A DNA stretch of 64,000 nucleotides from Patescibacteria group bacterium (GCA_036278915.1 DASUKB010000004.1:73441-137440), one strand, 5' to 3'. Shown: positions 16,700 to 51,669, counted from the first letter of the stretch. A program made the numbers and translations. Notes: generated by a model from the letters alone, not told the origin.

Positions 16700-16767
16700 A
16701 AAGCAATCATAGCAAAAACAATTTGCGTCCGCTAGTCTCAATTTTTAAATTCACATATAATAATCCT

Positions 16768-19835: not shown

Positions 19836-20189
19836 TTAGGTCACGAGGTCCATTGTCTCGATCTGGAAATTGAGTTCTTCGAGAATGAAGAGCAACTCGA
19901 CCTTGTTCTTGATCATGGGACCGAAGTGATCGATCTCGAATCCCTCAAGGGAACCATTCTTACGCCTGTAGGATCTCGCGGCTACTTCCACGAATGAACC
20001 TAAAGTTGCTTCGGTCTTCTCGATCAGCTTCGCTCTATCCGCGCTTTTGCGCAGATCGTGCTGGCCGTTGTCGATAACTACGCCCTCTTCGATCCACTGC
20101 GGCTTGTTCCAAGGGTCAGGCGGGAAAAATGGTTTGAGCTGCCCGAAGATCGCTTGTGCCGCTAGACTCAACTTCTCGCAATCTGTCAT
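19836..20189 (-). CDS. hypothetical protein
   Basis: 117 aa with no recognisable family. The gene is about 52% GC, above that of the two upstream genes. It is preceded by an SD (GGAGGAAGG). Confidence 0.45.
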   Translation of the reverse strand: MTDCEKLSLAAQAIFGQLKPFFPPDPWNKPQWIEEGVVIDNGQHDLRKSADRAKLIEKTEATLGSFVEVAARSYRRKNGSLEGFEIDHFGPMIKNKVELLFILEELNFQIETMDLVT

Positions 20190-20284
20190 AACCTTCCTCC
20201 ATTCAGAAGTAGGACTATAATAACAAAAAACAGCCTCAATGACGAGACTGTCTTCCTGGCAGCGAGCTTGGGATGAGGTGGGAG

Positions 20285-20758
20285 CTAATCTTGTTCAGGT
20301 AATGCCTGATGGTGTCCTGAAACAGTTGAATTAAATATTTCTAGAGCCCATTTAATAATTTGTTTATCGTGGACCTGAGTCAACTCAGAACCAGCTGTTA
20401 TAAACTTATGTCTGGTGGTCTCAGATGCATCAGGGTCGGCAGCAGCATAAACCACTTTTTTAACACCGGCTTGAATCAAGTTCGTAGTGCAGTCTCCGTA
20501 CTTTTCACCCTGACCACCGGGACTGCGTTTACCACAAGGCTCAACAGTTGTATATACAATGTCATTTTCCAAAATCGACTCTCCGGCAGATTTCAAATTT
20601 TGCAATAAAGCATATTCAGAATGAATTCCATTATTTGTACTGATTCCGCTAGCGATAATTTTCCCGTCTCTGACTAAACATGAAGTAACCACTCCGCCTT
20701 TGTCGTCGGACTGTTTAGATATTTCAAAAAGATGGTTAAATATTTCTAGTTCAGTCAT
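20285..20758 (-). CDS. CMP/dCMP-type zinc deaminase domain protein (RibD-N/ComEB-like)
   Basis: HSE...(about 27 aa)...EPCGKRSPGGQGEKYGDC...LIQAGVKKVVYAAADPD matches the H[AS]E / PC..C zinc-binding signature and its downstream helix. Confidence 0.65.
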   Translation of the reverse strand: MTELEIFNHLFEISKQSDDKGGVVTSCLVRDGKIIASGISTNNGIHSEYALLQNLKSAGESILENDIVYTTVEPCGKRSPGGQGEKYGDCTTNLIQAGVKKVVYAAADPDASETTRHKFITAGSELTQVHDKQIIKWALEIFNSTVSGHHQALPEQD

Positions 20759-20832
20759 AACGCAAGTTTAACAAAAAACAGCCTCATTGACGAGGCTATC
20801 TTTTGGCAGCAAACTTGGGAGAAGGCTGAAAA

Positions 20833-21453
20833 CTATTTAATCAATTCTTTGATCTTGTTAATGTAATCGGAACGGTCTACTGAGATAACTGGCATATTAT
20901 ATTTCCTTGCCTCCATTTTAATCATTTCATTAAAAGCAAAAACCCATTCCACTTCCTTCTCTTTAACATTATCTGGATACTTACTGGCTTCATCCCACAG
21001 ACCACGTGTGAAGACGGTGTTCCTAACGCGGTCTTTGTCCTCGTCTATGAGAAAAATTGATCGAATATCGACTTCGGATTTCCACCCCTGGTTCGCTATT
21101 AGGTGAGGAAGAATAGCAACACCTTCAATTATGAAATCGCCCCAGAAGTAATTAACCTCGACAAAACTCCGTACACCTTTCCAAACGTCCTCGCTCTCTT
21201 TGTTTTGATGAGCTACAATTTGGTCCGGCGTGTTGTTATTGAGGAATTCTACGGCAATATCCGCTCCAATACTTACACCGGGATCACCATGCAAAAAAAG
21301 GTTTGGATAATCTTCTTTTCTAACTATCCAACGCATCTGCTCTCGGATCATATCTGTAGAAATCCAAGGCACATCTAGTTCTTTTGCCAATATCCCCGCA
21401 GTATGAGTTTTTCCAGCCGTTGGTGATCCACCGATTAAAACAACTTTATTCAT
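20833..21453 (-). CDS. P-loop nucleotide/nucleoside kinase-like protein
   Basis: Walker A motif LIGGSPTAGKTHTAG at the N-terminus, with a Walker-B-like hydrophobic strand ending in D (SIFLIDED). The fold resembles small NMP/2-phosphoglycerate-kinase-like kinases. Confidence 0.6.
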   Translation of the reverse strand: MNKVVLIGGSPTAGKTHTAGILAKELDVPWISTDMIREQMRWIVRKEDYPNLFLHGDPGVSIGADIAVEFLNNNTPDQIVAHQNKESEDVWKGVRSFVEVNYFWGDFIIEGVAILPHLIANQGWKSEVDIRSIFLIDEDKDRVRNTVFTRGLWDEASKYPDNVKEKEVEWVFAFNEMIKMEARKYNMPVISVDRSDYINKIKELIK

Positions 21454-21607
21454 ATCCTAAGCATAACAAAAAACACTAGCAATAGCTAGACAATCTCGGG
21501 CTGGTCGATTGGACAGTAGAAAGACAGTGCTGCCTTCCCTCACTTCTGCCCGTTCGATTCCTACGATGACTATCAAAAAAGCGCCACGCAGAAGCGTGTC
21601 GCTTTTT

Positions 21608-21681
21608 TGGCAGGGGGTGTAGGAATCGAACCTACGCCAACGGTTTTGGAGACCGCAGTACTACCACTATACTAACCCCCC
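21608..21681 (-). tRNA. tRNA-Trp (anticodon CCA)
   Basis: Minus-strand GGGGGGTTAGTATAGTGGTAGTACTGCGGTCTCCAAAACCGTTGGCGTAGGTTCGATTCCTACACCCCCTGCCA. Cloverleaf with anticodon loop CUCCAAA. Confidence 0.85.
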
Positions 21682-21691
21682 TCATAGGGAA

Positions 21692-21946
21692 CTATTTAAT
21701 CCCTAATCGTTTTAATAACCCTGTATAGGACGATCCAAAATCTTTTAATTTCTGTTCTCTGTTCAGAGCCGCAGCTTTATCGGGATAAGCTTCAAAGTAA
21801 ATCAATTTTAAAGGCAGTCGACTACTTGTAGATTTGACCTTGCCTGGATTATGGAGGTTGAGCCGTGACATTACATCTTCGGTGTAGCCGATATAAAATC
21901 CATTATCTTTCAGACTTTGCAAGAGGTAAACGAAATGCATATCCAT
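21692..21946 (-). CDS. GIY-YIG domain nuclease (small free-standing)
   Basis: MDMHFVYLLQSLKDNGFYIGYTEDVMSRLNLHNPGKV...IYFEAYPDKAAALNREQKLK carries the GIY..YIG and conserved R, E, N positions. Start set at ATG 21946. The ORF caller's longer N-terminus just translates the tRNA remnant. Confidence 0.7.
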   Translation of the reverse strand: MDMHFVYLLQSLKDNGFYIGYTEDVMSRLNLHNPGKVKSTSSRLPLKLIYFEAYPDKAAALNREQKLKDFGSSYTGLLKRLGIK

Positions 21947-21950
21947 ACTA

Positions 21951-22023
21951 TGGGTGTAGGAATCGCCCCGCCTCTCGCGAGGTGGGGTTGGAGACCGCAG
22001 TACTACCACTATACTAACCCCCC
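21951..22023 (-). pseudogene. tRNA-Trp pseudo-copy (nt 1-37 intact, middle replaced by a 22-nt hairpin, 3' end degenerate)
   Basis: 22023-21989 is identical to tRNA-Trp positions 1-37, ending exactly after the anticodon loop A37. Then comes CCCCACCTCGCGAGAGGCGGGG, then CGATTCCTACACCC (T-arm 3' part). There is no acceptor 3' strand or CCA. Confidence 0.6.
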
Positions 22024-22081
22024 TCGTCATCCTGAACGCAGTGAAGGACCTTTGGATTCTTCGCTTCGCTCAGAATGACAC
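22024..22081. repeat. palindromic hairpin repeat, family 1, copy B
   Basis: TCGTCATCCTGAACGCAGTGAAGGACCTTTGGATTCTTCGCTTCGCTCAGAATGACAC, abutting the 5' end of the tRNA-Trp pseudo-copy. Confidence 0.85.
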
Positions 22082-22088
22082 AATATTA

Positions 22089-22244
22089 CTATTTAGTTTC
22101 TTTGTGTTCGGTGTGCTTTTTGCACCATTTGCAAAACTTGCTCGTAACCAAACGGTTTGGAGTCAGTTTTTTGTTCTTGCGGGAATGGTAGTTTATGTGA
22201 TGGCAAACCGTACATTCCATGCTAATCAAATTGTCCTGCGACAT
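22089..22244 (-). CDS. rpmG: 50S ribosomal protein L33
   Basis: ...MECTVCHHINYHSRKNKKLTPNRLVTSKFCKWCKKHTEHKETK shows the L33 zinc-ribbon pattern and the C-terminal KHT.HKE.K. Start at MSQDNLIS. Confidence 0.8.
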   Translation of the reverse strand: MSQDNLISMECTVCHHINYHSRKNKKLTPNRLVTSKFCKWCKKHTEHKETK

Positions 22245-22267
22245 ACTGTTCCTTTCTAAAAAGTTTA

Positions 22268-22392
22268 TTAGCGAGTACACTGACAAAATTAGCCTTCGCA
22301 GGCGGCCTCAGCCGCCGAGAAAGCAGGATGCAAAAATTGACCTTCCAATGTCAATTTTTGACATCCGGTAATTTTGTCAGCGTACGAGCGAT
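22268..22392 (-). promoter_or_regulatory. structured leader between tRNA-Thr and rpmG with long inverted repeats
   Basis: Arms ttagcgagtacactgacaaaattag and taattttgtcagcgtacgagcg flank an inner hairpin (gcggcctcagccgc) and a second inverted repeat (caaaaattgaca...tgtcaatttttg). Confidence 0.35.
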
Positions 22393-22396
22393 TTCC

Positions 22397-22472
22397 TGGA
22401 GCTGTCGGTCGGAATTGAACCGACGACCTACTCCTTACCATGGAGTTGCTCTACCAACTGAGCTACGACAGC
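22397..22472 (-). tRNA. tRNA-Thr (anticodon GGU)
   Basis: GCTGTCGTAGCTCAGTTGGTAGAGCAACTCCATGGTAAGGAGTAGGTCGTCGGTTCAATTCCGACCGACAGCTCCA, with anticodon loop AUGGUAA. Confidence 0.85.
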
Positions 22473-22546
22473 ACGCCTTTTGGACGCTTTAACCTGCACA
22501 CTGTAACACAAAAACTAATTTTAATCAACCCTTTTTCCAAACCGAA

Positions 22547-23287
22547 TTAAGCTGATTTTTCCACCGGGAGGGTGAAGTGGAAGGTTGTGCCTTTCCCCTG
22601 TTTGGATTCAAACCAGATGCGGCCGCCTGAGGCTTCTATAAACGATTTGGTGATGTACATGCCTAACCCTGTGCCAGTGGATTCAAATTCCAAAATGTTT
22701 GAACCGCGGAAAAATTTACTGAACACGCGCGGCTGTTGGGCTTTGGGTATGCCGACTCCGGTATCGCGGAATGTAACGTGGGCAAACCCATGGTCGAGCA
22801 TCAGGTTTATATCAATCCGTGATTTTTCCCGGCAATAAGTGATGGCATTCTCGACAAGATTGAGCACTGCTTGTTTGATTTTGATCGGCTCTGAATCCAC
22901 AAATGGAAAAGGTTCCTGCTCCACTGTAAAGGTCACCCTGATCTCTTTTTTCTTGATCTCGGAAGCTTCCTGCCGCAGTACCTGGTTTATGGTGCCCGCC
23001 AAATCCGTGGGTTGGAGATACAGTTTGGTGTTGCCTGACTCAAGCCTTGAGACTTCCAGCAGATCGTTGACCAGTTTGATCATGCGCTCGTTGGCCAAGT
23101 AGATTTTCTCCAAAATATCTTTTTGTTTGCGCGTCAAATTGTCGGTCTTGCTTTGTTCCAGCAATTCCAAAAGCCACTTGACGCCAGTAAGCGGCGTGCG
23201 CAGCTGATGACTGGTCAACGAAATAAAATCCGCCTCCAATCGGGAGGCTTTATCGGGAAGTTCAATTTTGGCTCGATTGCGTGGCAT
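22547..23287 (-). CDS. sensor histidine kinase (cytoplasmic, HisKA + HATPase_c)
   Basis: H-box LTSHQLRTPLTGVK, with N, G1 and G2 boxes in the C-terminal part (GTGLGMYI). Confidence 0.75.
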   Translation of the reverse strand: MPRNRAKIELPDKASRLEADFISLTSHQLRTPLTGVKWLLELLEQSKTDNLTRKQKDILEKIYLANERMIKLVNDLLEVSRLESGNTKLYLQPTDLAGTINQVLRQEASEIKKKEIRVTFTVEQEPFPFVDSEPIKIKQAVLNLVENAITYCREKSRIDINLMLDHGFAHVTFRDTGVGIPKAQQPRVFSKFFRGSNILEFESTGTGLGMYITKSFIEASGGRIWFESKQGKGTTFHFTLPVEKSA

Positions 23288-40539: not shown

Positions 40540-40630
40540 TTATCACCTATCATCTGCCAACTACTAACTTAAATAAAAAATACGCCGGCTCTGTCCAAGA
40601 AATTAATCTTGTGAACAGAACCGGCGTTTG

Positions 40631-41167
40631 CTACTGGCTTACGGAGGGCAGAGCGCCGACGATATGCTTGCCGCCATTGCGATCTTCCAGGTGGTAATCG
40701 CCCTCAGGCTTGAAGACGTTCACCGAAGTATTCGGGAAGGTGAACATTCTCCAGCAACCAGTCGTCTGACAGCCATACGGCTCCATGATCAGCTGGAAGT
40801 CCACCGTGCCCGGCGTCTCCACATCTCGGATGATCGTGTCGTTCACGTCCTTGATCGGGGCCGAGTTGGCGTACCCTGTCAAATACGTCTTGAACTTCGT
40901 CCCATCATAGACGCGAAGCCGAATGTTGGCTCCGTAAGGGTCCGATGCCTGATCCAGCCCAAGCTGGATATTGCCGTAGAGATTGAGGACAACGTTGTTT
41001 CCCTCGGAAAACCGCTGGATTGCCACGATAACCACGTTGTTGAGCGTTTCGCTCGCTGCATCCGTTGAGTCCGGCGAGGTCGGCGATGAATGGTGGTGAT
41101 CGCTGCACGCGCCCATCACCAGGAACAGAAACACAACGAAGCACGATCGCGCGACTCTTTTCATCAT
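40631..41167 (-). CDS. hypothetical lipoprotein
   Basis: Signal peptide with a lipobox-like LVMGAC. The gene is GC-rich compared with the flanks. Confidence 0.5.
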   Translation of the reverse strand: MMKRVARSCFVVFLFLVMGACSDHHHSSPTSPDSTDAASETLNNVVIVAIQRFSEGNNVVLNLYGNIQLGLDQASDPYGANIRLRVYDGTKFKTYLTGYANSAPIKDVNDTIIRDVETPGTVDFQLIMEPYGCQTTGCWRMFTFPNTSVNVFKPEGDYHLEDRNGGKHIVGALPSVSQ

Positions 41168-41473
41168 TCACCTCCGAAACATAGAAACGAAATACAAAGG
41201 CTCAAAATGAGCCACCCTCTTTCAAATTGTTAACAGAGCAGCATACTCTTTTTTGGGCTGTTTGTCAACCCTGCCAATTGGCCTGGAATTGCTTGCGTTC
41301 AGTTAATTTTTACAAGCAATTTGGATAAAAAAATTTTATTCCGCGAATTCCTTAAGCATATCGGCCATTCTGCTTCAGTTTTCAACAATTTTGTGAATAA
41401 ACCACAAATTTATTGCTTGTCCTTGCGTATTTTTAGGTTAAAATAGCTTCTGTAACCATTAAAAAAGGAGCCG

Positions 41474-42778
41474 ATGAAATTCTTTCGACCCCGAATCAAA
41501 AAAATAGAATTCAACACCAAAAGACAAATCATCACAAGTATTGGTCTGGCCGCGCTTTTGTGCGGCATGGTCGCAGTCACCGGGTACATGAACTTTCACT
41601 CTAAAGCCGCAGTTGAAACAGACGGCAACTGGCATGACTGCAATGGCGCCGTAGACAATGACCCAGCGCATCACAGCAGCGACGTAAACGATGCGGATCC
41701 CGCGCACCACATGGGCCAGGTCTGCAATGGAAACCAAGAAGCTTGGGGCAAAACTCCGACAACTTCCGACACTGCCAAAACAACTGATACGGTAAGTTCG
41801 GCAGATTCCACAGAAATCACCGGACCGCAAATCCCAGCAGCAATTGCCGAATCCATAATGCGCGCTCAATCTGTAATTGCAAACACGATCCAACCTGCAT
41901 CTGCGAACGATCCGTTTGGAGGAGCCAAACTCTACATCAACCCGAACAACGATCCTTCAAATTATGTTCGGCAAAACAATGGCAACTCAAACGCCAAGCT
42001 TATGGAAAAAATCGCAAGCCAACCGGAAGTGGAATGGCTAGGCAACTGGAACTCAAATATTTCCGGTGACGTAGCCAATATGATGAACACAATAGATAGT
42101 CAAGGCGCGCTTCCCGTATTCGTCGTCTACGACATTCCCTTCCGCGACTGCGGCGGCTACTCTGCGGGCGGCGTCAATGATGCGTCATCTTACCACAACT
42201 GGATTTCGCAAATAGCCAATACAATTGGCGCCCGCAAAGCCGTAATTATATTAGAACCGGATGCAGTGACTCTTACCGATTGTCTGTCTGTTTCGCAGAA
42301 ATCTGATCGCAACGCAATGCTCACCGATGCGGTCAAACAATTCAAATCGCAGGGCAATACTGCAGTCTACATCGACGCCGGCCACCCGGACTGGATTGCG
42401 CCCGCAGACCTCGCCGCTCGGCTCAAGGCTGCCGGAGAAGATATGGCCGACGGATTTGCGCTGAACATTGCCAACTTCTACACCAACGACCAGAACGCCG
42501 CGTACGGCAAACAAATTTCCGACCTGCTCGGAGGCAAACACTTTATCGTCGACACAGGACGCAGTGGATCCGGCCCGGCATCAGGCGATGCCTGGTGTAA
42601 CCCTTCCGGCCGATCCCTGGGCACCCCGCCCACCACCAACACCGGTAATTCGCTTATAGACGCATACCTTTGGGTCAAAGGTCCCGGCGGTTCCGACGGC
42701 AACTGCAACGGCGGCCCGTCAGCCGGCCAATTCTGGCCCGACTACGCGCTTGGCTTGGCACAGAGAACGAATTGGTAA
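41474..42778 (+). CDS. glycoside hydrolase family 6 (cellulase / cellobiohydrolase-like)
   Basis: GH6 catalytic-region motif VFVVYDIPFRDCGG (compare V.YDLPDRDCAA) and C-terminal DAYLWVKGPGGSDGNC (compare DAF.WVKPGGE.DG). Signal/anchor at the N-terminus. GC-rich. Confidence 0.75.
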   Translation: MKFFRPRIKKIEFNTKRQIITSIGLAALLCGMVAVTGYMNFHSKAAVETDGNWHDCNGAVDNDPAHHSSDVNDADPAHHMGQVCNGNQEAWGKTPTTSDTAKTTDTVSSADSTEITGPQIPAAIAESIMRAQSVIANTIQPASANDPFGGAKLYINPNNDPSNYVRQNNGNSNAKLMEKIASQPEVEWLGNWNSNISGDVANMMNTIDSQGALPVFVVYDIPFRDCGGYSAGGVNDASSYHNWISQIANTIGARKAVIILEPDAVTLTDCLSVSQKSDRNAMLTDAVKQFKSQGNTAVYIDAGHPDWIAPADLAARLKAAGEDMADGFALNIANFYTNDQNAAYGKQISDLLGGKHFIVDTGRSGSGPASGDAWCNPSGRSLGTPPTTNTGNSLIDAYLWVKGPGGSDGNCNGGPSAGQFWPDYALGLAQRTNW

Positions 42779-42824
42779 TTTAGACTTTTACTCCGGCGTA
42801 TAAAGCCCAAAAGTAAGTAAAAGA

Positions 42825-42855
42825 AAACTCCTCGACAAAACTTCGAGGAGTTTTA
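42825..42855 (+). terminator. rho-independent terminator downstream of the GH6 gene
   Basis: aaaactcctcgacaaaacttcgaggagtttt. Confidence 0.6.
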
Positions 42856-43094
42856 AATTATGTGAATCAATGATATTTTATACAACCTTTTTGATCTTGG
42901 CTTTGGTTTCAATGCGTCCGCACGAAAGAGGTCTTGGTTTCTGCGACACTCGGAAAAAATTCGTCGGAATTCGAAGCGAGCCGGAAGGTTGCAGCCGAGA
43001 GTTCGAAAAAATCTTCGCAACCAATAAGCGAAAGCGAGCTAAGAATTCCGGAATTTTTTCCCGTGTCGCAATTTTTCTGCCGCGATCGCGGCAA

Positions 43095-44252
43095 TTAACT
43101 ATTTATCCATAACCACATGGCAAACCAGTGCCATGACTGGGCATAAAAATCCGTATCCGGGAACTTAAGTGTATCGCCCACAAAATAATATTTATTCACG
43201 ACCTGATTGGCAAGTGTCGGATTGTTGATCGCAAAAATCCCGATTGGCGCAGCCAGTGTGCTGGTTGTAGAATGGTCGCAAGTATTATTTCCGTTCTGAT
43301 ACAAATACAACGCGCAGGTCTGTCCCCGTGACTGCCAATCGGAAGCAAAACTTCCAGCCGAAGACAGATACAGTTTTGCCGCATCGCTTGGTGAATTTTG
43401 AAAATCGAAAGCTACCCGCCAAAACACCCGAAACGCGTCGTACCCGAAATCCTGCGACTGCGGTTTGTCGGCATAAGGCAGAATCGTGCCATCGATTTTG
43501 CGCACCGCTACCCAGTTCGGGGGCACAAATGGCTGTGAACTGCCGTGCTCGGAAACTTGTGTCAGTAAATTGTACCCATCTGTTATGAGCTTGCTCCAGT
43601 CGTGGCCTTTGTCATACTGCGCAAACAGACGATACGCCTGAGGCGAAAAGTAGGACGGATCCACCACCAGCTGGTCCGGCTGATTGGCCCAGTTGCCGGC
43701 AATTACCAATCTTTTGCCTGCAGCCTCCCCCGTTTCTTTGTCCCAAATGTCTGCGGCTACATCTGTTCCTTCTTTAATGTAATCATCATTGTGCCAGTTG
43801 CTTCCTGCCAAAAGCAAAGCGTAAGCATAATCCGTGTCCGCATCTGTAGCTGAATTTTGGTCCAGCACGCGCGTATGGCCGTCCGTGCCCACATCAAACT
43901 GCCACGAAAGCAAGTGGTCGTTGGGACGAGCTAAATTACTTTCCGTCCATGCCAAAACTTCAGCAAAGGTTTTACTATCACCTGCCCAAAAAGATTGCAG
44001 TAGCGCATAAGCTTGAGATTCCGAATTGTAGTTTTTGGAACCCTGCGCAAAACCTTGCGCGTATTGCGGCTTGAGACACTGTTCGTAAAATTTGATAAGT
44101 GCTTTTTTGGCGTCGGGTTTATCGGGAAGATTTGAGGCGGACGGATTTGTATTCTGCTGGCAAGATACTTGCAGCGGATTTCTTCGCGAATACAAAATCA
44201 ACGCTGCACCGGCCAAAATGATAAGTCCGACGGCAAAAACTTTTAGTTTCAT
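43095..44252 (-). CDS. glycoside hydrolase family 8 (endo-beta-1,4-glucanase / BcsZ-like)
   Basis: ATDADTDYAYALLLAGSNW is a near-perfect match to the GH8 PROSITE pattern, and SESQAYALLQS is the catalytic Glu region. A signal anchor is present. Confidence 0.7.
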   Translation of the reverse strand: MKLKVFAVGLIILAGAALILYSRRNPLQVSCQQNTNPSASNLPDKPDAKKALIKFYEQCLKPQYAQGFAQGSKNYNSESQAYALLQSFWAGDSKTFAEVLAWTESNLARPNDHLLSWQFDVGTDGHTRVLDQNSATDADTDYAYALLLAGSNWHNDDYIKEGTDVAADIWDKETGEAAGKRLVIAGNWANQPDQLVVDPSYFSPQAYRLFAQYDKGHDWSKLITDGYNLLTQVSEHGSSQPFVPPNWVAVRKIDGTILPYADKPQSQDFGYDAFRVFWRVAFDFQNSPSDAAKLYLSSAGSFASDWQSRGQTCALYLYQNGNNTCDHSTTSTLAAPIGIFAINNPTLANQVVNKYYFVGDTLKFPDTDFYAQSWHWFAMWLWINS

Positions 44253-44256
44253 TTTA

Positions 44257-45981
44257 TTATTTTAATCCTACGGTTGGTTTCGTTTGAATTTTAGCATAAA
44301 TATCGCTTGGGTCCCACCAGGAGATCTGCGGATTTATAGACGGAATCTGCGAGGCGTCCAGTCCATGAGCTGCAGCCATGTCCATTACTTTGGCATCATC
44401 AATTTTATAAATACGGCGAATGGGATTTTGCATGACCAAATCATAATACTGCGTAAGTTCGGGGTTTTTCCCCCACTTGACCATAATCTCATCGTTTTGC
44501 TCAGACCAAGCGTCGTTGTCGTCTGGATTATGCATAACTATGTAACGGGCAAACAGCCACGGCTCGGTATCGGCCTGGTCAAAATATTTATAGTTGCCTT
44601 CGTAAATATAATTTGAAAGCGGTACATGAGCCTGCGAAAGAATCGGATCATTGTCGGCTTTAGTCAACAGGATTTTTCCATAATCATAGTTGTTGGCAAG
44701 ATACTGCATAGCCTCCACCTGCCCTGGCAGGGGCGAGTTGATGTCGTCCTTAATGACGCTGAATTTTTGCGCAACCACGACCTGGTACGACTGGTAGACG
44801 CCGAGCCCCAAAAGCGCCACGGCCAAAACAACGCGCACGGAATTCGCTATCCAGCCCATCCACCTGCGGTTGGATCGACTGAAATAATATGCAACGGCGC
44901 TTATGAGAAGCACGGGCACCAGAATCGTAAATCCAATCCAGGTCAGGCTGTAGCGTTCGTTTGAGAAAAAATTATATGGCGGGAGGTTTGCCACCAGCAC
45001 CGAACCCGTGCCCGTGACCAAAGTCATAAGCACAAACACAAATGGGCTGGCCAGCACGGTCAAAATTGCCATGGACCGAAATTTTTTGCCTGAAAGCACG
45101 GCAAATACAACTAAACTTCCAACCGACACCCACACCAGCGGCTTGGATAGCATATAGAATGATGAGTACACCAGATATTTAACCGACATTAGAACATTGC
45201 CCTTGGTGAAAGCCGTAGCGTTGCCAGAATTTTTAATCCAACTGCCGCCGGTGAATGCCAAAGGACTCCCGCCAAAAACCCAACTGTAAATGAAAATTGC
45301 CACAAGTCCTAAACACGCCGGAATCAAAAACAACAGCAGTACCGCTTCTTTCTCGGAATAATTTTTCCGTTTGCGCGTCAGCTGGATAAATATAATCAAC
45401 GATACTAATGGAATGAGGATTAGTCCTTCAAACCGCGACAAACATGTAAGCGTAACGAACACGCCGGTTAAAACCAGCCATTTAAGCTTCTGTTCTGCAA
45501 GCCACTCGGCCAAAAAATATGCAGTGCCAAATAAATTCGCTAAAAACAAAACTTCCATCATTGGCGTCACGCTGAAATACAAAATATAAGGATTGACGAC
45601 CAAAAGCAGCGCCGCAACAAAACTTAAAAATTTATCGTTCGTATAAAGATACGCAAGCCTATATAAGAATACCGCTGCCACCATAAGCGCAGGAATTAGC
45701 ACCACAGCGCCTGCCCCGCCGGACTGGTAAAGGCTCGTGATAAGCGTAAACGGCATCATCAAAATATGCAGCAGGGGCGGCCAGAATCCGATCTGCGAAA
45801 TTCCGGGAGTCATGCTGTCGAACACGAGCCTCGATGCATCCAAATGCGCGTTCTGGTCAGTCAAAAATTTTACCAGGCCCAAATTTTGGACCCAGGCATA
45901 CATCGCCAGGCCAAATAGGCCTGTGATGATCACGAGCGCAAGTTCTATTTTAGGTTTCTGTTTGGGGAAGTTTGATTGCAT
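44257..45981 (-). CDS. polytopic membrane protein, possible GT-C-fold glycosyltransferase
   Basis: 574 aa with 12 or more TM helices and loops bearing acidic motifs. It is co-directional with, and overlaps, the GT2 gene. Confidence 0.4.
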   Translation of the reverse strand: MQSNFPKQKPKIELALVIITGLFGLAMYAWVQNLGLVKFLTDQNAHLDASRLVFDSMTPGISQIGFWPPLLHILMMPFTLITSLYQSGGAGAVVLIPALMVAAVFLYRLAYLYTNDKFLSFVAALLLVVNPYILYFSVTPMMEVLFLANLFGTAYFLAEWLAEQKLKWLVLTGVFVTLTCLSRFEGLILIPLVSLIIFIQLTRKRKNYSEKEAVLLLFLIPACLGLVAIFIYSWVFGGSPLAFTGGSWIKNSGNATAFTKGNVLMSVKYLVYSSFYMLSKPLVWVSVGSLVVFAVLSGKKFRSMAILTVLASPFVFVLMTLVTGTGSVLVANLPPYNFFSNERYSLTWIGFTILVPVLLISAVAYYFSRSNRRWMGWIANSVRVVLAVALLGLGVYQSYQVVVAQKFSVIKDDINSPLPGQVEAMQYLANNYDYGKILLTKADNDPILSQAHVPLSNYIYEGNYKYFDQADTEPWLFARYIVMHNPDDNDAWSEQNDEIMVKWGKNPELTQYYDLVMQNPIRRIYKIDDAKVMDMAAAHGLDASQIPSINPQISWWDPSDIYAKIQTKPTVGLK

Positions 45982-48145
45982 AAGTTTCTAAAGTCTCCTC
46001 TTTGGCTGCGAGGTGTTTGCCATGCACGGTCTTGGACCAGTGGTGCGGCGAGTACATAAATTCCGCGGCAGCGCGCACAGACGCCACAGCCAGCAAAATC
46101 CAGTATAACGGCGACAGCAGGCCGTATTTGACCGCGTTGTATCTCCCGCGCTGATAACTTGAGACGAGGTTAAGATAAACGAAGATTATATTGCCCGCAG
46201 CAAACGAGATTAATGACGTATAAAATATCGGACTTGGGAACAGCGACTGTATGAGGTGCGAATGCGTGGCAAACCATCCAACAAGCAATCCCCAGTACAC
46301 GAGGTTGGCAATGTTGATTACCACCGAAGCCGGCACCGTGATCGCAAATGCAAACAGCCCCGCCCAACCGATCCCAACTTCACGCTTAAATCGTAAAGGA
46401 TGTCGCAAGTGCACGATCGAAGTTTGGATAAAGCCCTTAATCCAGCGCGTGCGCTGCGCAACCCACGGATAGATCGAAGTCGTCGCCTCTTCGCGGCTCA
46501 CAGAATCCAAAATTTCCACTTTTTTGCCGGCGCGCGCAAGCTTGATTCCTGTATCCGCATCTTCGGTAACGTTGTATGGATCCCAAGCGCCAATGTCCTC
46601 AAGCGCGGATTTGCGGAAGTGCACGCTGTGACCGGAAAGCGGAATCGGATAGCCGAGTTTTTGCAAACCAGGCAAAAGCATATCAAAATGGAATGCGAAT
46701 TCTTCGTTGAACAGACGTGTAATCAAACTTTGCTCCGGATTGTAATGGTCGAGCCTGGTCTGCAGCGCATCCACTTGCGGAAATTTCTGAAATGCCAAAT
46801 ATGCTTTCTTAAGCTGGTCAGCATCGGGTATGATCTCCGCATCGTAAATGACGAGGAATTCCCCATGCACCTGCGGGAACGCCACATTCAGAGCTTTCGG
46901 TTTGGTCTTGGGCTGCACGTCGGGCAAAATTAGCGTTCGGAAATGCGCGGGCGGATTGGCGTCGGCAATGGCTTCTATAGTTTCCGTATCATACTCCTCA
47001 AGCGTGATTATAATTTCCAATTTCTCCGTGGGATAGTCAATCGCACTCATAGCGGTGATAATTTGGCGGATCACGGCTGCCTCTTTGTACAAAGGCACAA
47101 GTATCGTGTACATGGGCAAATCATAAGGATTAACCGATTCTATTTCTTCCGGGGAAATATCCAAAAATTTTTGGGTCGTCGCATGGTAGATTACGCGCAA
47201 TTTAAAGGCCATCATCACCACGTAAAACACGGCCATAATTCCCGAAATTATTACAAGCGACGAAATTCCAGTCAGCCGGTGCAGGCCGTAAATTGTGGCA
47301 GACAAGACGAACAAAATCGTCAAAACCAAACTTACTGTCTCCAAATACAACGTACGCTTGGCGCTCATAATCTGCGGCGTATACACAAAATCCCAATTAT
47401 TGTTCCAGTTATTCCCCAGCCGCTCGCTTGGGTGCGGGTATTCCAGAAATTTTAAAATTCCAAACAGGAAATATTTGAATCTAAGCTTCAATGCGCCAAA
47501 TCCCAGTTCCAGTCCGGTACTCAAAACGCTTACGTTGGACTTGCCGTGCATGCGGCCGGTAAATTGTATGTCGGTCTGCGCAATCCTCCAGCCCAGACGT
47601 TTGGCCTTAAACAGGAAGTCATAATCGAAACCCCAAGCGGAAGGCTTGAGCCGAACGCTTGCACAGACTTGCTTGCGGAAAACTTTAAGCCCGGACTGTA
47701 CGTCATACGGCAATCCCAAAAGCATCCGGCCAAAGAAAAATTTATATATTTTGCTGGAAATTTTACGGAAATTCCCGGCATCCGCGAATTGGCGGTTGCC
47801 GACCACGATATCTGCATCGGTAAGCTGTAATACCATTTGCGGTATGGCTTCGGGCGGATATTGCAAGTCCGCGTCAATCATAGCAATGATTTCACCTTTG
47901 GACTCCACAATGCCCTCCAGAAGCGACGTCGCTTTGCCTCGCGCGCCTTGTTTGGTGAGCAGACGGATATGCTCACGCGGGTATTTGGATTTAAGCGCGC
48001 GCAAAAATTTGGCCGTACCATCCGTCGAATGATCGTCGACAAAAATGAGCTCATGCGCAAGCCCGATCAGCGATTGGGCCAAACGATCGACGAGTGAGGC
48101 AAGGTTGTCCTCTTCGTTGTAAGTGGGGATGATTATTGAAAGCAT
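45950..48145 (-). CDS. dual-domain family-2 glycosyltransferase (N-terminal DPM1-like GT2 + TM region + processive GT2 with QxxRW)
   Basis: N-domain IIIPTYNEEDNL...IFVDDHSTDGT...IDADLQ. C-domain YTILVPLYKE...YDAE...TEDADTG...QRTRWIKG, which are the D, D, TED and QxxRW motifs of processive beta-glycan synthases. Multiple TM helices lie between and after the two domains. Confidence 0.75.
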   Translation of the reverse strand: MLSIIIPTYNEEDNLASLVDRLAQSLIGLAHELIFVDDHSTDGTAKFLRALKSKYPREHIRLLTKQGARGKATSLLEGIVESKGEIIAMIDADLQYPPEAIPQMVLQLTDADIVVGNRQFADAGNFRKISSKIYKFFFGRMLLGLPYDVQSGLKVFRKQVCASVRLKPSAWGFDYDFLFKAKRLGWRIAQTDIQFTGRMHGKSNVSVLSTGLELGFGALKLRFKYFLFGILKFLEYPHPSERLGNNWNNNWDFVYTPQIMSAKRTLYLETVSLVLTILFVLSATIYGLHRLTGISSLVIISGIMAVFYVVMMAFKLRVIYHATTQKFLDISPEEIESVNPYDLPMYTILVPLYKEAAVIRQIITAMSAIDYPTEKLEIIITLEEYDTETIEAIADANPPAHFRTLILPDVQPKTKPKALNVAFPQVHGEFLVIYDAEIIPDADQLKKAYLAFQKFPQVDALQTRLDHYNPEQSLITRLFNEEFAFHFDMLLPGLQKLGYPIPLSGHSVHFRKSALEDIGAWDPYNVTEDADTGIKLARAGKKVEILDSVSREEATTSIYPWVAQRTRWIKGFIQTSIVHLRHPLRFKREVGIGWAGLFAFAITVPASVVINIANLVYWGLLVGWFATHSHLIQSLFPSPIFYTSLISFAAGNIIFVYLNLVSSYQRGRYNAVKYGLLSPLYWILLAVASVRAAAEFMYSPHHWSKTVHGKHLAAKEETLETYAIKLPQTET

Positions 48146-48690
48146 AAATTTCCTTCCACTAAAGCTTACTTAAAAGCATGCATCAGTGCCTACTGTGCAA
48201 TCGGGTCAACAAGTTGGAATTAAAAAAAAATTTATTGGTAAGTTTGACAGGCCGAAAAAGTTTTCTCCATTTTTCAGGACAAGCAAATTAATATTTTCAG
48301 ACGCGCCTCGTTACTTTTGCTTGGATTTTTTGTATAATGTGAACAGGGACGCACCAACAAATCAGGCCATTGTTCTGGCTTGCAAGCACAATGCACCTTC
48401 ATTGGTTCGGATGGTTTGCATAATCCACAGGTAGTCGAAAAGCTTGATTTTGCGTATTTTGACCTAAGTAACAACCTCCAAAAAATTTCGTCACTGACAC
48501 AATATGCCTGGACAATCATCACATAAATTGAAAGCAGACTCATTCGCCGAAATTTCAACGAAAGCAGAACGCCGCGAAAGCAAAAATCGCCAGCGTATGA
48601 AACAGCACGGCGCGTCTTTGAAACGCCCCTCCAAATTCTCCGGACTCAAACTCGCTAAAAAGAAATAAGCATGGTTTAGCTAGAAGAAAA

Positions 48691-49632
48691 GTGACAAAGA
48701 AATTTATGCATAGATTAATAATAATTTTGGGTCCCACCGCCTCCGGCAAATCATCTCTTGCAATTAAACTTGCAAAAAAGTTTAAGGGCGAGATTATTTC
48801 CGCAGACAGCAGGCAAGTCTATCGCGGCATGGATATCGGCACTGGCAAGATTTCCAAAAAAGAACAACGCCTGGTACCGCACTATTTGATGGACGTTGCA
48901 AATCCCAAAAAACAGTTCACCGTCTCTGACTTCAAAAAGCTAGGAGCCCAGGCAATCGAAAGAATCAAGAAAAAACATAAATTGCCGTTTATAGTTGGCG
49001 GCACGGCCTTTTATATCTATTCGCTCATAGACGACTGGCAGATTCCGGAAGTTGCGCCAAATAAAAAATTACGTAATACATTACGTAATAAATCCACCAG
49101 GGAACTTTTTGCCATGCTCCAAAAACTGGATCCGAGGCGCGCGGCCAACATAGACTCACGCAATCCCGCGCGCCTCAGCCGCGCGATTGAGATAGTCAAA
49201 ACGACAGGTAGGCCAGTGCCCTCCCTGTCATCCCCGACTCCGATCGGGGATCTTAATAAAGATTCCCGCTTCCGCGGGAATGACACAAAGGTTTTATTAC
49301 TTGGTATCCGCAAAGACCAAAACGAGCTTTACAAGCTTATCGATAAGCGCTTGGAAGAAAGATTGAGGTCAGGAATGGTTGCAGAGGTAAAAAAACTTCA
49401 CAAATCTGGTTTGTCTTGGAATAAACTAGAAAGCTTTGGTCTAGAGTACCGCTTTGTTTCTCTTTATTTACAAAATAAATTATCTTATAGAAAAATGGTA
49501 GACCAGCTCAAATCCGCCATTCATAAATTTTCCAAACGCCAGAATACATGGTTTAAACGCGACACTCGGATCCATTGGATCAAAAACGAAAAAGAAGCTC
49601 GGAAACTGATTAAGCCTTATCTGTCATCCTGA
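48691..49632 (+). CDS. miaA: tRNA dimethylallyltransferase
   Basis: P-loop IIILGPTASGKSSLAI...ISADSRQVYRGMDIGTGK is the MiaA signature. The stop codon TGA lies inside repeat copy C. Confidence 0.85.
   Translation: MTKKFMHRLIIILGPTASGKSSLAIKLAKKFKGEIISADSRQVYRGMDIGTGKISKKEQRLVPHYLMDVANPKKQFTVSDFKKLGAQAIERIKKKHKLPFIVGGTAFYIYSLIDDWQIPEVAPNKKLRNTLRNKSTRELFAMLQKLDPRRAANIDSRNPARLSRAIEIVKTTGRPVPSLSSPTPIGDLNKDSRFRGNDTKVLLLGIRKDQNELYKLIDKRLEERLRSGMVAEVKKLHKSGLSWNKLESFGLEYRFVSLYLQNKLSYRKMVDQLKSAIHKFSKRQNTWFKRDTRIHWIKNEKEARKLIKPYLSS
49225..49286 (+). repeat. palindromic hairpin repeat, family 1, copy D, in-frame inside miaA
   Basis: CTGTCATCCCCGACTCCGATCGGGGATCTTAATAAAGATTCCCGCTTCCGCGGGAATGACAC shares its termini (TGTCATCC...GAATGACA) and central GGATCTTAATAAAGATTC with copies A-C. 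It encodes SSPTPIGDLNKDSRFRGND, an approximately 20-aa loop not present in, for example, E. coli MiaA. Confidence 0.7.
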
Positions 49633-51231: not shown

Positions 51232-51669
51232 TTAGTTGTGTGGGGGCGGCACAGTGGTATTGTCCGCGGGTTTGGCGCAGCTGTCGATATGGTTCACGCA
51301 GGAACTGCTGAAGTCCACAAGATCAGGATTTATAGTTTTAAGTAAAATATATGCGCCCAAAAGAAGAATCAACCCAATGACAGATGAAAATATGTACGAT
51401 CTGCCGCGCGTCGCCCTGTCCGCATTGCCCGCGGAAGTTAGAGTTATATAACCGCCCACGATAATCATAAGCACAGCCAGGACAGCAGCCACGGATATAG
51501 ACCAGACATAAACCTGGCTCACGCATGAAGTCAGCGCTTGGCCAGTGGAATTGGTGGTGGTTGTGGTGCCCGTATTGGTATCCGTACCGCAACTCGCGGC
51601 AAATGCCGGATGCGGCACAAACGACAGGGCAAAAAAGATAAGACCGAAACCGACAAGTTGGCGTTTCAT
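51232..51669 (-). CDS. small secreted protein with two-helix T4SS-pilin-like (VirB2/TrbC-like) C-terminal domain
   Basis: Signal peptide, Thr-rich linker (TNTGTTTTTNSTG), then VYVWSISVAAVLAVLMIIVGGYITLTSAGNADRATRGRSYIFSSVIGLILLLGAYILLKTINPDLVDF. This stretch is about 75% identical to the C-terminus of the 4622..6304 protein. It sits between gatA and gatB. Confidence 0.6.
   Translation of the reverse strand: MKRQLVGFGLIFFALSFVPHPAFAASCGTDTNTGTTTTTNSTGQALTSCVSQVYVWSISVAAVLAVLMIIVGGYITLTSAGNADRATRGRSYIFSSVIGLILLLGAYILLKTINPDLVDFSSSCVNHIDSCAKPADNTTVPPPHN

Follow-up and report, generated by a model that had tools for sequence, protein, structure and literature searches.

A candidate cell-envelope glycan module of Patescibacteria that links a processive GT2 synthase and a GT-C glycosyltransferase to GH8 and GH6 endoglucanases

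We suggest, with a probability of roughly 0.55, that a block of glycosyltransferase and glucanase genes in the genome of a Patescibacteria group bacterium is native and has been inherited vertically, that it forms a module for a cell-envelope glycan which works by the mechanism proposed below, and that it probably builds and trims a decorated beta-glucan at the cell surface. The block was analyzed within a stretch of 64,000 nt (GCA_036278915.1 DASUKB010000004.1:73441-137440), which is referred to as the window. Its four enzymes are assigned to family and fold and have intact catalytic residues; they show an operon arrangement, are syntenic in relatives, and are linked in activity by gene fusions.

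The ultra-small Patescibacteria contribute much of the diversity of bacteria and live in attachment to other cells, and little is known of their envelope chemistry. A conserved, fusion-linked module would supply a specific surface-polymer candidate for the group and would show a new way to decorate a synthase-made polysaccharide during its export. No description of such a module was found in the searchable literature.

Gene content and predicted enzymes

The gene calls, CAZy-type families, and motifs of the initial annotation were all recovered, and the ORFs of the locus (Table 1) contain VVYDIPFRDCGG, DAYLWVKGPGGSDG, ATDADTDYAYALLLA, SESQAYALL, TED, and QRTRW. The GT2 and GT-C genes share 32 nt, and 4 nt separate the GT-C gene from the downstream GH8 gene. 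The hairpin downstream of the latter (AAAACTCCTCGA-AGTTTTG-TCGAGGAGTTTT, from a consensus scan only) is likely a bidirectional intrinsic terminator. The surrounding genes are core genes, encoding RF1, PrmC, L25, FtsW/RodA, DnaE, ThrRS, MiaA, GatCAB, and ClpB. No gene for a GtrA-like flippase, BcsB, or PilZ and no sugar-nucleotide gene was found within the 64-kb window.

Table 1. Positions of the genes and domains of the locus, counted from the first nucleotide of the window
Feature	Position	Strand	Size or residues	Basis or remark
Putative lipoprotein ORF	40631-41167	-	178 aa	
GH6 ORF	41474-42778	+	434 aa	
Hairpin	42824..42854		12-bp stem	A-run and T-run flanks; between convergent GH6 and GH8
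GH8 ORF	43095-44252	-	385 aa	
GT-C (polytopic protein) ORF	44257-45981	-	574 aa	
Double-GT2 ORF	45950-48145	-	731 aa	
C-terminal TM helices of synthase	46052..46378	-	aa 590-698	Hydrophobic segments and structure model
C-terminal GT-A catalytic domain	46421..47116	-	aa 344-575	PF13641 146 bits, PF13632 95 bits
TM hairpin linking the two GT2 domains	47180..47353	-	aa 265-322	Hydrophobic segments; model helices 268-292, 296-322
N-terminal GT2 domain with juxtamembrane helices	47456..48145	-	aa 1-230	PF00535; PDB profile; Foldseek

The double-GT2 protein had been read as a DPM1-like GT2 fused to a second, processive GT2, and Pfam, profiles, and Foldseek agree on a DPM1/GtrB-like domain (PF00535 at aa 3-160) followed by a processive, membrane-embedded GT2 (PF13641/PF13632 at aa 344-623). 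Over aa 3-223 the N-terminal domain matches solved members of the polyprenyl-phosphate glycosyltransferases by profile (DPMS 5mlz, 130 bits; ArnC, 102; GtrB, 102), and Foldseek aligns it to 5mlz with 29% identity and an rmsd of 3.4. It has the GT-A domain and DxD motif of these enzymes, with D93 invariant and D91 nearly so, and in the structure model the juxtamembrane helices (207-230) are followed by a TM hairpin (268-322). This domain is a predicted GtrB/DPMS/ArnC-type polyprenyl-phosphate glycosyltransferase.

The C-terminal domain carries the BcsA signature of processive GT2 enzymes (D, DxD, TED, QxxRW) in a membrane-embedded fold, and its hallmarks D386, D435-A-E437, T-E528-D529, and Q564-R-x-R567-W568 are invariant in 25 homologues. 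The profile match to E. coli BcsA is 81 bits, and Foldseek returned BcsA (E 3.5e-16), hyaluronan synthases, and Chs1. From this match to the BcsA/HAS fold, the C-terminal TM helices are presumed to form the glycan channel; after them comes a conserved W703-x-K-T-x-H-G709 motif, in which W703, K705, T706, H708, and G709, as well as the preceding P700, are invariant. Among the NCBIfam profiles, PgaC/IcaA scored 125 bits (TIGR03937, cut-off 422) versus 62-63 bits for CelA/BcsA (CelA, 63 vs 699; PRK11498, 62 vs 992), and since these scores are far below all cut-offs, the sequence does not by itself point to one particular sugar.

The protein encoded between the GT2 and GH8 genes had been described as a polytopic membrane protein, which is correct, but its GT-C identity had been missed. 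It consists of about 11-12 TM helices followed by a C-terminal extracytoplasmic domain and matches PMT_2 (PF13231, 35.3 bits, cut-off 26.1). Its AlphaFold2 model (pLDDT 91.3, pTM 0.90) resembles STT3, DPY19, ArnT, PglB, ALG9, Pmt4, and AftB in Foldseek (E down to 4e-8, TM about 0.5), and its first outside loop has two residues, D42 and H46, that are invariant across 30 homologues. Profile, fold, and the acidic loop residue D42 place it in the PMT_2 / GT39-GT83-like group. It is thus a predicted GT-C-fold glycosyltransferase (PMT_2 / GT39-like) and a putative user of polyprenyl-P-sugars, which makes it a natural partner for the GT2 domain at the N-terminus of the 731-aa protein.

Both hydrolases are anchored in the membrane. 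The GH8 protein (PF01270, 110 bits, cut-off 24) has an N-terminal anchor at aa 1-24, and E78, D141, and D272, among them the catalytic Glu and Asp of the family, are invariant in 14 orthologues. Its best PDB matches are the endoglucanases 1wzz, 5gy3, 5czl, and 3qxf, and within NCBIfam it scores highest against BcsZ, where its 121 bits fall short of the equivalog cut-off (299); judged from these scores, it is BcsZ-like and not a BcsZ orthologue. The GH6 protein (PF01341, 212 bits, cut-off 27) has a TM anchor (aa 17-41), a His/Cys-rich linker, and a catalytic domain (aa ~145-431) that aligns almost without gaps over about 287 residues with its best solved relatives, the "putative cellulase Cel6" 1uoz/1up0 (247 bits) and endoglucanase E-2 1tml (197 bits). 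The RDC motif, the EPD catalytic acid, DAGH, and the Asp of the C-terminal SDG are all present, and D225, E261-P262-D263, D301, and D408 align with 1uoz and are invariant in 20 orthologues. We predict that it is an endoglucanase-type hydrolase. The view that GH6 is seldom found beyond Actinobacteria and fungi no longer holds: 3113 homologues were found with E <= 1e-5, and among the best 120 of these 3113, all of at least 344 bits and most without a source name, the named sources are mostly Patescibacteria (Doudnabacteria, Peribacteraceae, Parcubacteria).

The putative lipoprotein has an N-terminal hydrophobic segment that ends in ...VMGAC (one segment predicted, aa 4-23) and no Pfam or NCBIfam match. 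It is peripheral, and its membership of the module is uncertain.

Arrangement of the module in related loci

In loci L002-L005 the block stands between the same housekeeping genes, in the order GatA-GatB-MiaA-[GT2-GT-C-GH8-GH6]-ThrRS-DnaE, with protein identities of 56-80%. A wider census covered 46 related loci, nearly all from Patescibacteria, which were recruited through two synthase peptide patterns and are therefore not an unbiased sample; the taxon labels of the MAGs among them are unreliable. In 43 of the 46, the synthase gene is directly followed by a GT-C gene of the same strand; the GH8 gene adjoins the GT-C gene or is fused to it, and the GH6 gene is usually convergent. The last is the least tightly linked part, present in 20/46 loci at variable distance and orientation. 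Where the N-terminal domain is fused to the synthase and the available sequence extends 6 kb or more downstream, GT-C is found in 13/13 loci, GH8 in 12/13, and GH6 in 11/13, versus 5/23 (GH8) and 7/23 (GH6) in loci with the short form of the synthase (Fisher p 6e-5 and 0.0045). From locus to locus, the four proteins vary together in identity (rho 0.49-0.78), and no further conserved neighbour was found in the loci examined.

In many relatives GT-C and GH8 form a single protein of 912-967 aa. The protein P0459 combines PI-GT, synthase, and GT-C and has an adjoining GtrA gene, P0402 and P0467 are fusions of synthase and GT-C, P0455 joins GtrA, PI-GT, and GT-C, and in P0436 a GH5 cellulase takes the place of GH8 behind PI-GT and GT-C. 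Fusions among the PI-GT, flippase, GT-C, synthase, and endoglucanase genes occur in nearly every permutation. One operon, in L050, holds an NTP-transferase, the synthase, a GT-C/LysM protein, GtrA, and a GT2; GtrA-like genes also lie within L043, L046, L029, and L040, and in L049. A flippase encoded together with the glycosyltransferase pair, as in Gtr-type three-component systems, is present in relatives and was not found in the window. A synthase and GT-C fusion is also found in Tengunoibacter tsumagoiensis (WP_126582356.1), which we take to be a cultured organism, so that the idea should be experimentally approachable.

Proposed pathway and its alternatives

What we infer in the following pathway is the sugars, the GT-C acceptor, what the hydrolases do, and the flipping of the lipid-linked sugar. 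The C-terminal two-thirds of the 731-aa protein, as a processive BcsA/hyaluronan-synthase-like GT2, would polymerize an NDP-sugar through beta-1,4 linkages, with UDP-glucose as the most likely substrate, and push the growing chain outward through its own TM helices. The N-terminal third, of the GtrB/DPMS/ArnC type, would attach a single sugar to polyprenyl (undecaprenyl) phosphate on the inner membrane face. The lipid-linked sugar would then be flipped, in relatives by the GtrA-like flippase, and used at the outer face by the co-transcribed GT-C. Its acceptor would most likely be the emerging chain, to which side branches would be added during synthesis; a protein, a lipid, or peptidoglycan could equally be conceived as acceptor of such an enzyme. 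Outside the membrane, the anchored GH8 (BcsZ-like, from the same operon) and GH6 (CslZ/Cel6-like, from the convergent gene) may cut the backbone for release, sizing, or threading of the chain through the wall. This pathway keeps the proposal of the initial annotation that the locus serves an exopolysaccharide or cell-wall glycan. Only tentatively, we extend it to a previously unrecognised synthase-dependent polysaccharide machinery, widespread in Patescibacteria and found in Chloroflexota too, in which a BcsA-like synthase would be physically coupled to a Gtr-type pathway and to endoglucanases. Its product would be a beta-glucan that acquires its branches during synthesis and that may be a major, hitherto overlooked component of the CPR envelope.

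The BcsZ-type GH8, the endoglucanase-type GH6, the GH5 swap in P0436, and the analogy with Streptomyces CslZ point to a beta-1,4-glucan backbone, and two observations are counter-pointers to glucose: the best NCBIfam score of the synthase domain is that for PgaC/IcaA, and the GT-C of some relatives carries LysM, which usually binds GlcNAc-containing glycans. It is conceivable, though unlikely, that the same machinery makes a GlcNAc-, ManNAc-, or mixed beta-1,4 backbone (PgaC/NodC/Pss-like) and that the GH8 acts on that polymer. GH8 enzymes do occur in synthase operons beyond cellulose; Listeria PssZ, for example, acts on a ManNAc-Gal polymer. However, the GH8 studied here is nearer to BcsZ-type endoglucanases (74 bits) than to chitosanases (only 31-32 bits) in the PDB, a GH5 cellulase can stand in its place, and in the loci examined no PgaB/IcaB-like deacetylase and no conserved PgaD/IcaD-like small partner was found. 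The substrates of GH6 enzymes are essentially beta-1,4-glucans, and reports of xylan or chitin are rare (Table 1 in PMC9040799).

We consider it quite unlikely that the product is a lipid-primed polymer or lipoglycan, for which the N-terminal domain would make a primer, the synthase would elongate it, and the GT-C would hand over the finished chain as a whole to peptidoglycan, a protein, or a lipid, or that the GT-C is itself the polymerase, for which mycobacterial arabinan and mannan synthesis provide a precedent. Such a scheme fits the 1:1:1 fusion of PI-GT, synthase, and GT-C, which would allow substrate channelling, and the closest GT-C folds, which are oligosaccharyltransferases (STT3, AglB, PglB) that transfer whole glycans; the pneumococcal type 3 synthase is known to be primed on lipid. 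However, the flippases that are fused or adjacent in relatives are of the GtrA type, which acts on polyprenyl-P-monosaccharides, and the characterised members of PMT_2 transfer single sugars. With its complete processive signature and presumed channel-forming helices, the synthase makes a second polymerase unnecessary.

Surveys of Patescibacteria have read GH genes as substrate-degrading enzymes (PMC9868632), and GH6 and GH8 in CPR genomes are routinely scored as cellulose degradation in carbon-cycling inventories. That the two hydrolases are catabolic cellulases for environmental cellulose and only chance neighbours of a glycosylation operon seems improbable to us, although both have intact active sites and many GH6 homologues carry PA14/GLEYA sugar-binding modules. 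GH8 follows GT-C after 4 nt and is part of the same polypeptide in many genomes, and the presence of GH8 and GH6 tracks the synthase variant. Both enzymes are membrane-anchored and have no detected carbohydrate-binding Pfam domain, and the search of the 64-kb window yielded neither a beta-glucosidase nor a cellobiose phosphorylase or sugar transporter. If the envelope module is real, it changes the reading of these inventories, and the CPR "cellulases" would be biosynthetic, not catabolic.

The locus had also been taken for a GC-rich, probably horizontally acquired one. The GC excess of the segment at 40600-42800 is weakly true (51.1% vs 47.4 +/- 2.0% for 2.2-kb windows, within the top 2.3% of these). 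The lipoprotein gene is an outlier, the GC-richest in the window (55.9%, z 2.06; GC3 z 2.7), but the GH6 gene (53.0%, z 1.36) has an ordinary GC3 (z 0.6), and GH8 (48.2%), GT-C (46.4%), and GT2 (49.0%) are average. Equal GC is reached in DnaE (35.0-36.3 kb), GatB/GatA (50.3-51.2 kb, <=52.4%), and ClpB (54.1-54.7 kb), the GC of the whole locus (48.7%) is equalled or exceeded in 17% of equal-sized windows, and its tetranucleotide usage correlates normally with that of the window (z -0.66 to +0.40); we therefore see no compositional island. In relatives' genomes of 46-59% GC, the GH6 orthologue is likewise 0.8-1.3 sd GC-richer than its neighbours, which makes the excess a property of the gene and not a foreign signature. 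No repeats, tRNAs, or mobility genes such as an integrase were found at the borders, and weak homologues of the lipoprotein (52-58 bits) lie at the syntenic place between GH6 and ThrRS in L002 and L004.

None of the marks of a genomic island (deviating composition, border features, absence from close relatives) was thus found, and horizontal acquisition is not supported: relatives carry the locus at native composition, an outcome that the initial annotation had itself named as refuting its reading. Recent transfer into a streamlined genome, for example from Actinobacteria, is very improbable: the GC3 of the lipoprotein gene, the GC of the segment around it, and the striking closeness of the GH6 catalytic domain to 1uoz/1up0 would fit it, but it is contradicted by the native composition, the clean borders, and the same flanks in L002-L005. 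The likeness to 1uoz/1up0, which presumably are from Mycobacterium tuberculosis, makes an ancient inter-phylum transfer conceivable for GH6 alone. For the module as a whole we favor vertical inheritance because of the shared flanks, the native composition, the lack of repeats, and the core-gene neighbours.

Comparison with known systems

The analogy with bcsA/bcsZ-type cellulose loci holds. As in BcsA/BcsZ operons, a membrane-embedded processive GT2 of the BcsA fold with the D, DxD, TED, and QxxRW motifs is encoded in one operon with a GH8 endoglucanase, whose nearest characterised relatives are of the BcsZ type (BcsZ/CMCax). In contrast to these operons, the locus has no PilZ, BcsB, or BcsC, its synthase has only about 5-6 TM helices, and its proteins miss the equivalog cut-offs of BcsA and BcsZ by a wide margin; it adds the N-terminal polyprenyl-P glycosyltransferase, an obligatory GT-C partner, and GH6.

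Listeria pssA-E/pssZ and Bacillus subtilis ydaJKLMN are monoderm systems in which a GT2 synthase is combined with a GH8 for a self-made polymer, which in Listeria Pss is a decorated beta-1,4 backbone. They are controlled by c-di-GMP and have BcsB-like subunits, and to our knowledge they have no GT-C, polyprenyl-P glycosyltransferase, or GH6.

The Cel6 enzyme 1uoz/1up0 (247 bits) and T. fusca Cel6A (197 bits) share with the GH6 of the window a short-loop, endoglucanase-type domain with conserved equivalents of D225, D263, D301, and D408, to which the window enzyme adds the TM anchor, the His/Cys-rich linker, and the biosynthetic locus. In Streptomyces, the neighbour of the cellulose-synthase-like CslA is the GH6 protein CslZ, which the deposition of the glycan through the wall requires (PMC9040799). 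The cslA-glxA-cslZ (lpmP) locus is likewise from a monoderm and pairs a GT2 with an opposite-strand, membrane-associated GH6 that lacks a carbohydrate-binding module, but it has the GlxA copper oxidase and an LPMO where the locus studied here has GT-C, the polyprenyl-P glycosyltransferase, and GH8.

The three-component lipid-linked systems GtrA/GtrB/GtrC, CsbB-GtcA-YfhO, ArnC-ArnT, and Ppm1-Pmt resemble the module in their GtrB/ArnC/DPMS-like enzyme and its GT-C partner and, as far as the relatives are concerned, in the fused or adjacent GtrA-like flippases, none of which was found in the window. The difference is that here the lipid-linked pathway is fused to or co-operonic with a processive synthase and glucanases.

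Genes of the locus and the enzymes they encode

The GT2, GT-C and GH8 genes of the locus form a tight operon on the minus strand, the first two overlapping by 32 nt and the last two separated by 4 nt, and the GH6 gene is convergent with this operon. A hairpin with a 12-bp stem and flanking A and T runs (42824-42854) lies between the stop codons of GH6 and the operon. The GH6, GH8 and two-GT2 assignments of the initial annotation were confirmed by Pfam, and all the motif strings quoted there are present in the ORFs of the locus. The lipoprotein and both hydrolases (GH6 and GH8) have one hydrophobic segment at the N-terminus and are therefore predicted to be membrane-anchored on the outer face.

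Genes of the locus, with positions in the window
Product	Position	Strand	Basis
Putative lipoprotein, 178 aa	40631-41167	-	ORF
GH6, 434 aa	41474-42778	+	ORF; Pfam 212 bits
GH8, 385 aa	43095-44252	-	ORF; Pfam 110 bits
Polytopic GT-C protein, 574 aa	44257-45981	-	ORF; PMT_2 35.3 bits (cut-off 26.1)
Double GT2, 731 aa	45950-48145	-	ORF; PF00535 aa 3-160 and PF13641/PF13632 aa 344-623

A small plus-strand ORF in the GH6/GH8 gap (42870-43112) is probably spurious, as it overlaps the hairpin, a likely terminator, and shows no conservation. A 27-nt inverted repeat (48129-48155 and 48696-48722) reflects only the resemblance between the divergent GT2 and MiaA genes in their ribosome-binding sites and first codons. 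Upstream of the operon and in the intergenic regions, Rfam gave no credible match to a riboswitch or regulatory RNA (best E value 0.48, 18.5 bits versus a gathering score of 270).

For the N-terminal domain of the double GT2, a profile of 25 homologues matched, over aa 3-223, the dolichyl-phosphate mannose synthase 5mlz with 130 bits and ArnC and GtrB with 102 bits each; a Foldseek search with the AlphaFold2 model (pLDDT 85) also returned 5mlz (29% identity, rmsd 3.4). The model contains juxtamembrane helices typical of GtrB/DPMS/ArnC-type enzymes (207-230) and, after them, a TM hairpin (268-322) connected directly to the second GT-A domain. In this synthase domain all the hallmarks of processive GT2 enzymes are invariant (D386, D435/E437, E528-D529 and Q564-R-x-R-W568). 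It matches E. coli BcsA in sequence (81 bits) and BcsA, hyaluronan synthases and Chs1 in fold (Foldseek), and it falls below all curated equivalog thresholds (125 versus 422 bits for PgaC/IcaA; 63 versus 699 for CelA). A PilZ domain is absent from the 731-aa protein.

The protein initially described as a polytopic membrane protein is indeed one, and Pfam identifies it more exactly as PMT_2, a GT-C glycosyltransferase family. Since a sequence search against solved structures gave no match, its fold was taken from an AlphaFold2 model (pLDDT 91, pTM 0.90), for which Foldseek returned STT3, DPY19, ArnT, PglB, ALG9, Pmt4 and AftB. GT-C enzymes carry a catalytic acid in the first outside loop, and D42 and H46 of this loop are invariant. 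The family is large: the GT-C alignment profile retrieved 760 clusters at E ≤ 1e-30 from 1.84 billion representative proteins.

The closest solved relatives of GH8 are the endoglucanases 1wzz, 5gy3, 5czl and 3qxf (56-74 bits), of which we take 1wzz to be CMCax and 3qxf to be E. coli BcsZ; chitosanases scored only 31-32 bits, and a chitosanase reading was rejected on these scores. Among NCBIfam families GH8 matches BcsZ best, although with a score under the cut-off, and E78, D141 and D272 are invariant. GH6 is closest to Cel6 (1uoz/1up0, presumably from Mycobacterium tuberculosis; 247 bits) and to the T. fusca endoglucanase E-2 (197 bits). Its alignment to solved relatives is nearly gap-free over about 287 residues, which makes it a short-loop, open-cleft endoglucanase type and not a cellobiohydrolase, and D225, the EPD triad 261-263, D301 and D408 are invariant.

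The linker of GH6 (aa 52-93; window 41627-41752) contains a conserved, unannotated His/Cys-rich module with Cys residues at both ends (W-H-D-C-N-G-A-V-D-N-D-P-A-H-H ... D-A-D-P-A-H-H-M-G-Q-V-C). The module occurs in all close orthologues, is duplicated in the homologues P0018 and P0020, has an invariant H66, and might bind metal. Many GH6 homologues of 570-740 aa (P0010-P0012, P0022, P0027, P0038, P0052 and P0057) have lectin/adhesin-type domains (PA14 and GLEYA) ahead of the catalytic domain, on its N-terminal side. Two of these proteins are labelled as Acidobacteriaceae and Verrucomicrobiae MAGs, which could reflect either mis-binning or transfer of this type of GH6 beyond the Patescibacteria (CPR).

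Conservation and permutations of the module

Related loci were collected from one genome per species, scanned on the basis of 25 aligned full-length double-GT2 homologues. This yielded 46 loci, which were recruited with two synthase peptides and are thus biased towards the synthase subfamily of the window. Nearly all the loci are labelled as Patescibacteria (Doudna-, Peri-, Ryan-, Woese-, Wildermuth- and Kaiserbacteria, and Paceibacterota), and some of the labels assigned automatically ("Gammaproteobacteria" and "Binatia", for example) are likely to be errors. The GT-C gene directly follows the synthase gene on the same strand in 43 of the 46 loci, and the N-terminal GT2 domain is fused to the synthase in 18. 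Among the fused loci that extend 6 kb or more downstream, GT-C is present in 13/13, GH8 in 12/13 and GH6 in 11/13, versus 20/23, 5/23 and 7/23, respectively, for the short-form synthases of 480-550 aa; the fused form is thus associated with both GH8 (Fisher p = 6e-5) and GH6 (p = 0.0045). Identities to the four window proteins co-vary across the loci (Spearman rho 0.49-0.78), as expected if the four genes have diverged together. Of the module's members, GH6 is the least tightly associated. All-against-all clustering of every ORF in the 46 loci revealed no other widely shared neighbour beyond GT2, GT-C/GH8 and GH6.

The components also occur as fusions, which between them link all the activities. 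Many GT-C homologues are proteins of 912-967 aa with a C-terminal GH8 domain, and others carry LysM. P0459, a single chain of 1471 aa, combines a polyprenyl-P GT2, a processive GT2 and a GT-C, and its adjoining gene is GtrA-like; outside the clade of the window, locus L049 (3931-8930) encodes a 1471-aa protein of this composition, followed by GtrA. Processive GT2 and GT-C are fused in P0402 (Anaerolineae MAGs) and in P0467 from Tengunoibacter tsumagoiensis (WP_126582356.1; locus L048, 8001-11501, also outside the clade), P0455 from a Saccharimonadales MAG is composed of GtrA, GT2 and GT-C, and P0436 of GT2, GT-C and a GH5 cellulase. In L050 (5432-15584), again outside the clade, a sugar-phosphate nucleotidyltransferase gene, a short synthase gene, a gene for a LysM-bearing GT-C and a GtrA gene form an operon, and the next gene encodes a 1725-aa GT2+GSDH+PKD+Laminin_G protein. 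GtrA-like genes lie between components of the module in four further loci (L043, L046, L029 and L040). The window represents one permutation of a recurrent set composed of a sugar-lipid synthase, a flippase, a GT-C, a processive synthase and an endoglucanase.

Base composition, neighbourhood and origin

The locus had been regarded as GC-rich and probably acquired horizontally, a view that the present results contradict. The window has a GC content of 47.5% (per-gene mean 47.4%, sd 4.1) and the whole locus 48.7%, with 48.2% for GH8, 46.4% for GT-C and 49.0% for GT2. The lipoprotein gene is the GC-richest in the window (55.9%, z = 2.06; GC3 z = 2.7). The GH6 gene reaches 53.0% (z = 1.36) with an ordinary GC3 (z = 0.6), so that its excess falls on the first two codon positions and stems from amino-acid composition. 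The stretch 40600-42800 (51.1% GC) ranks among the richest 2.3% of 2.2-kb windows, a level equalled by parts of DnaE, GatB/GatA (up to 52.4%) and ClpB. The tetranucleotide correlation of the locus with the window (z = −0.66 to +0.40) is on a par with that of other 4-kb pieces. In 6/6 relatives, with locus GC contents of 46-59%, the GH6 orthologue is 0.8-1.3 sd GC-richer than its neighbours; the slight excess thus belongs to the gene itself and tracks the base composition of the host.

The gene order of the window, GatA-GatB-MiaA-[GT2-GT-C-GH8-GH6]-...-ThrRS-DnaE, is found in the four closest loci (L002-L005), where the flanking proteins are 56-80% identical, and a weak lipoprotein homologue lies between GH6 and ThrRS in L002 and L004. 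Sharing of the locus by related genomes at native composition is what the initial annotation had named as a sign of vertical inheritance, and the locus is vertically inherited in this clade. The nearest named homologues of the window proteins come from Candidatus Doudnabacteria, no mobility genes were found at the borders of the locus, a search for repeats over 38.5-50 kb gave short chance matches only, and none of the seven tRNAs in the window is adjacent to it. We are highly confident that the locus is native and conserved. The GH6 gene alone may have undergone an ancient inter-phylum transfer, as the CPR GH6 is highly similar to the 1uoz Cel6 chain.

The sole real compositional outlier of the window is 19001-23000 (tetranucleotide correlation z = −4.96), where acquired DNA is more plausible than at the GH6/GH8/GT2 locus. 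It contains low-GC genes for a cytidine/dCMP deaminase-like protein (20285-20758, 39.7% GC), a weakly P-loop/zeta-toxin-like protein (20833-21453, 40.6%) and a GIY-YIG nuclease (21692-22030, 42.8%), with tRNA-Trp (21608-21681) among them and tRNA-Thr (22397-22472) just past them.

The window as a whole is ordinary core chromosome (MraZ, L10, YceG, S2, EF-Ts, RF1, PrmC, L25, FtsW/RodA, DnaE, ThrRS, MiaA, GatCAB, RecX, ClpB, a sigma factor and RecG). "T4SS_pilin" domains (30-32 bits) occur in two proteins (51232-51669 and 4622-6304), one of which, of 145 aa, is encoded between GatB and GatA, a position kept in the three closest relatives. At 15191-18003, the gene for a 516-aa protein with an RnfD/NQR2-like membrane region and an NAD-binding oxidoreductase domain is followed by an opposite-strand, weakly glucose/sorbosone-dehydrogenase-like gene with overlapping ends, a combination that is unusual in a reduced genome; the giant GT2-containing protein encoded in L050 has a GSDH domain as well.

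A proposed glycan pathway and its relation to known systems

We suggest, with a probability of about 0.8, that the locus encodes a synthase-dependent extracellular glycan system. GtrB/DPMS/ArnC-type enzymes make polyprenyl-P-monosaccharides at the cytoplasmic face, GtrA-type proteins are flippases associated with these lipids, and PMT_2-type GT-C enzymes use polyprenyl-P-sugar donors on the outer face. Polymerisation and translocation are a single step in BcsA/HAS-type enzymes, and BcsZ and CslZ act as dedicated hydrolases of glucans that the cell itself produces. In the most economical model from this family knowledge and the fusions, the synthase domain would extrude a beta-1,4 chain, the N-terminal domain would supply a lipid-linked sugar, the GT-C would place this sugar on the emerging chain, and GH8 and GH6 would cut the backbone for release, sizing or passage through the wall. 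Decoration of the synthase polymer by the GT-C has about an even chance. No GtrA flippase, sugar-nucleotide enzyme, cellobiose-utilisation gene or regulator of the module was found within the 64-kb window. Flippases that recycle undecaprenyl phosphate have been reported within the DedA/VTT family, and a DedA/VTT-domain membrane protein encoded 22 kb from the locus (18000-18596) is a candidate lipid-carrier handler.

For the backbone we lean slightly towards a beta-1,4-glucan, the main argument for glucose being that three cellulase-type families (GH8, GH6 and GH5) have been recruited to the module. The polymer may instead contain GlcNAc, as the synthase domain scores higher with PgaC/IcaA than with BcsA in NCBIfam and LysM-bearing GT-Cs exist among the relatives.

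What makes the locus interesting is not horizontal acquisition but its conservation across the phylum, which makes it a candidate for a surface polymer of the CPR, together with the new coupling described below. In a representative survey the glycoside hydrolases of Patescibacteria were read as catabolic (PMC9868632), and full-text searches of the literature returned nothing on such a module for CPR/Patescibacteria. Each part is of a known kind. As in Bcs, a synthase stands with a cognate GH8; as in Streptomyces, a synthase is paired with a GH6, where CslZ is a membrane-associated GH6 required for apical glycan deposition (PMC9040799); and as in Gtr, Arn and Csb, there is a lipid-linked glycosylation pair. 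What appears to be new is the combination, in which a processive synthase shares a polypeptide or an operon with a polyprenyl-P glycosyltransferase and a GT-C and is accompanied by dedicated endoglucanases, a new coupling of two export/glycosylation routes.
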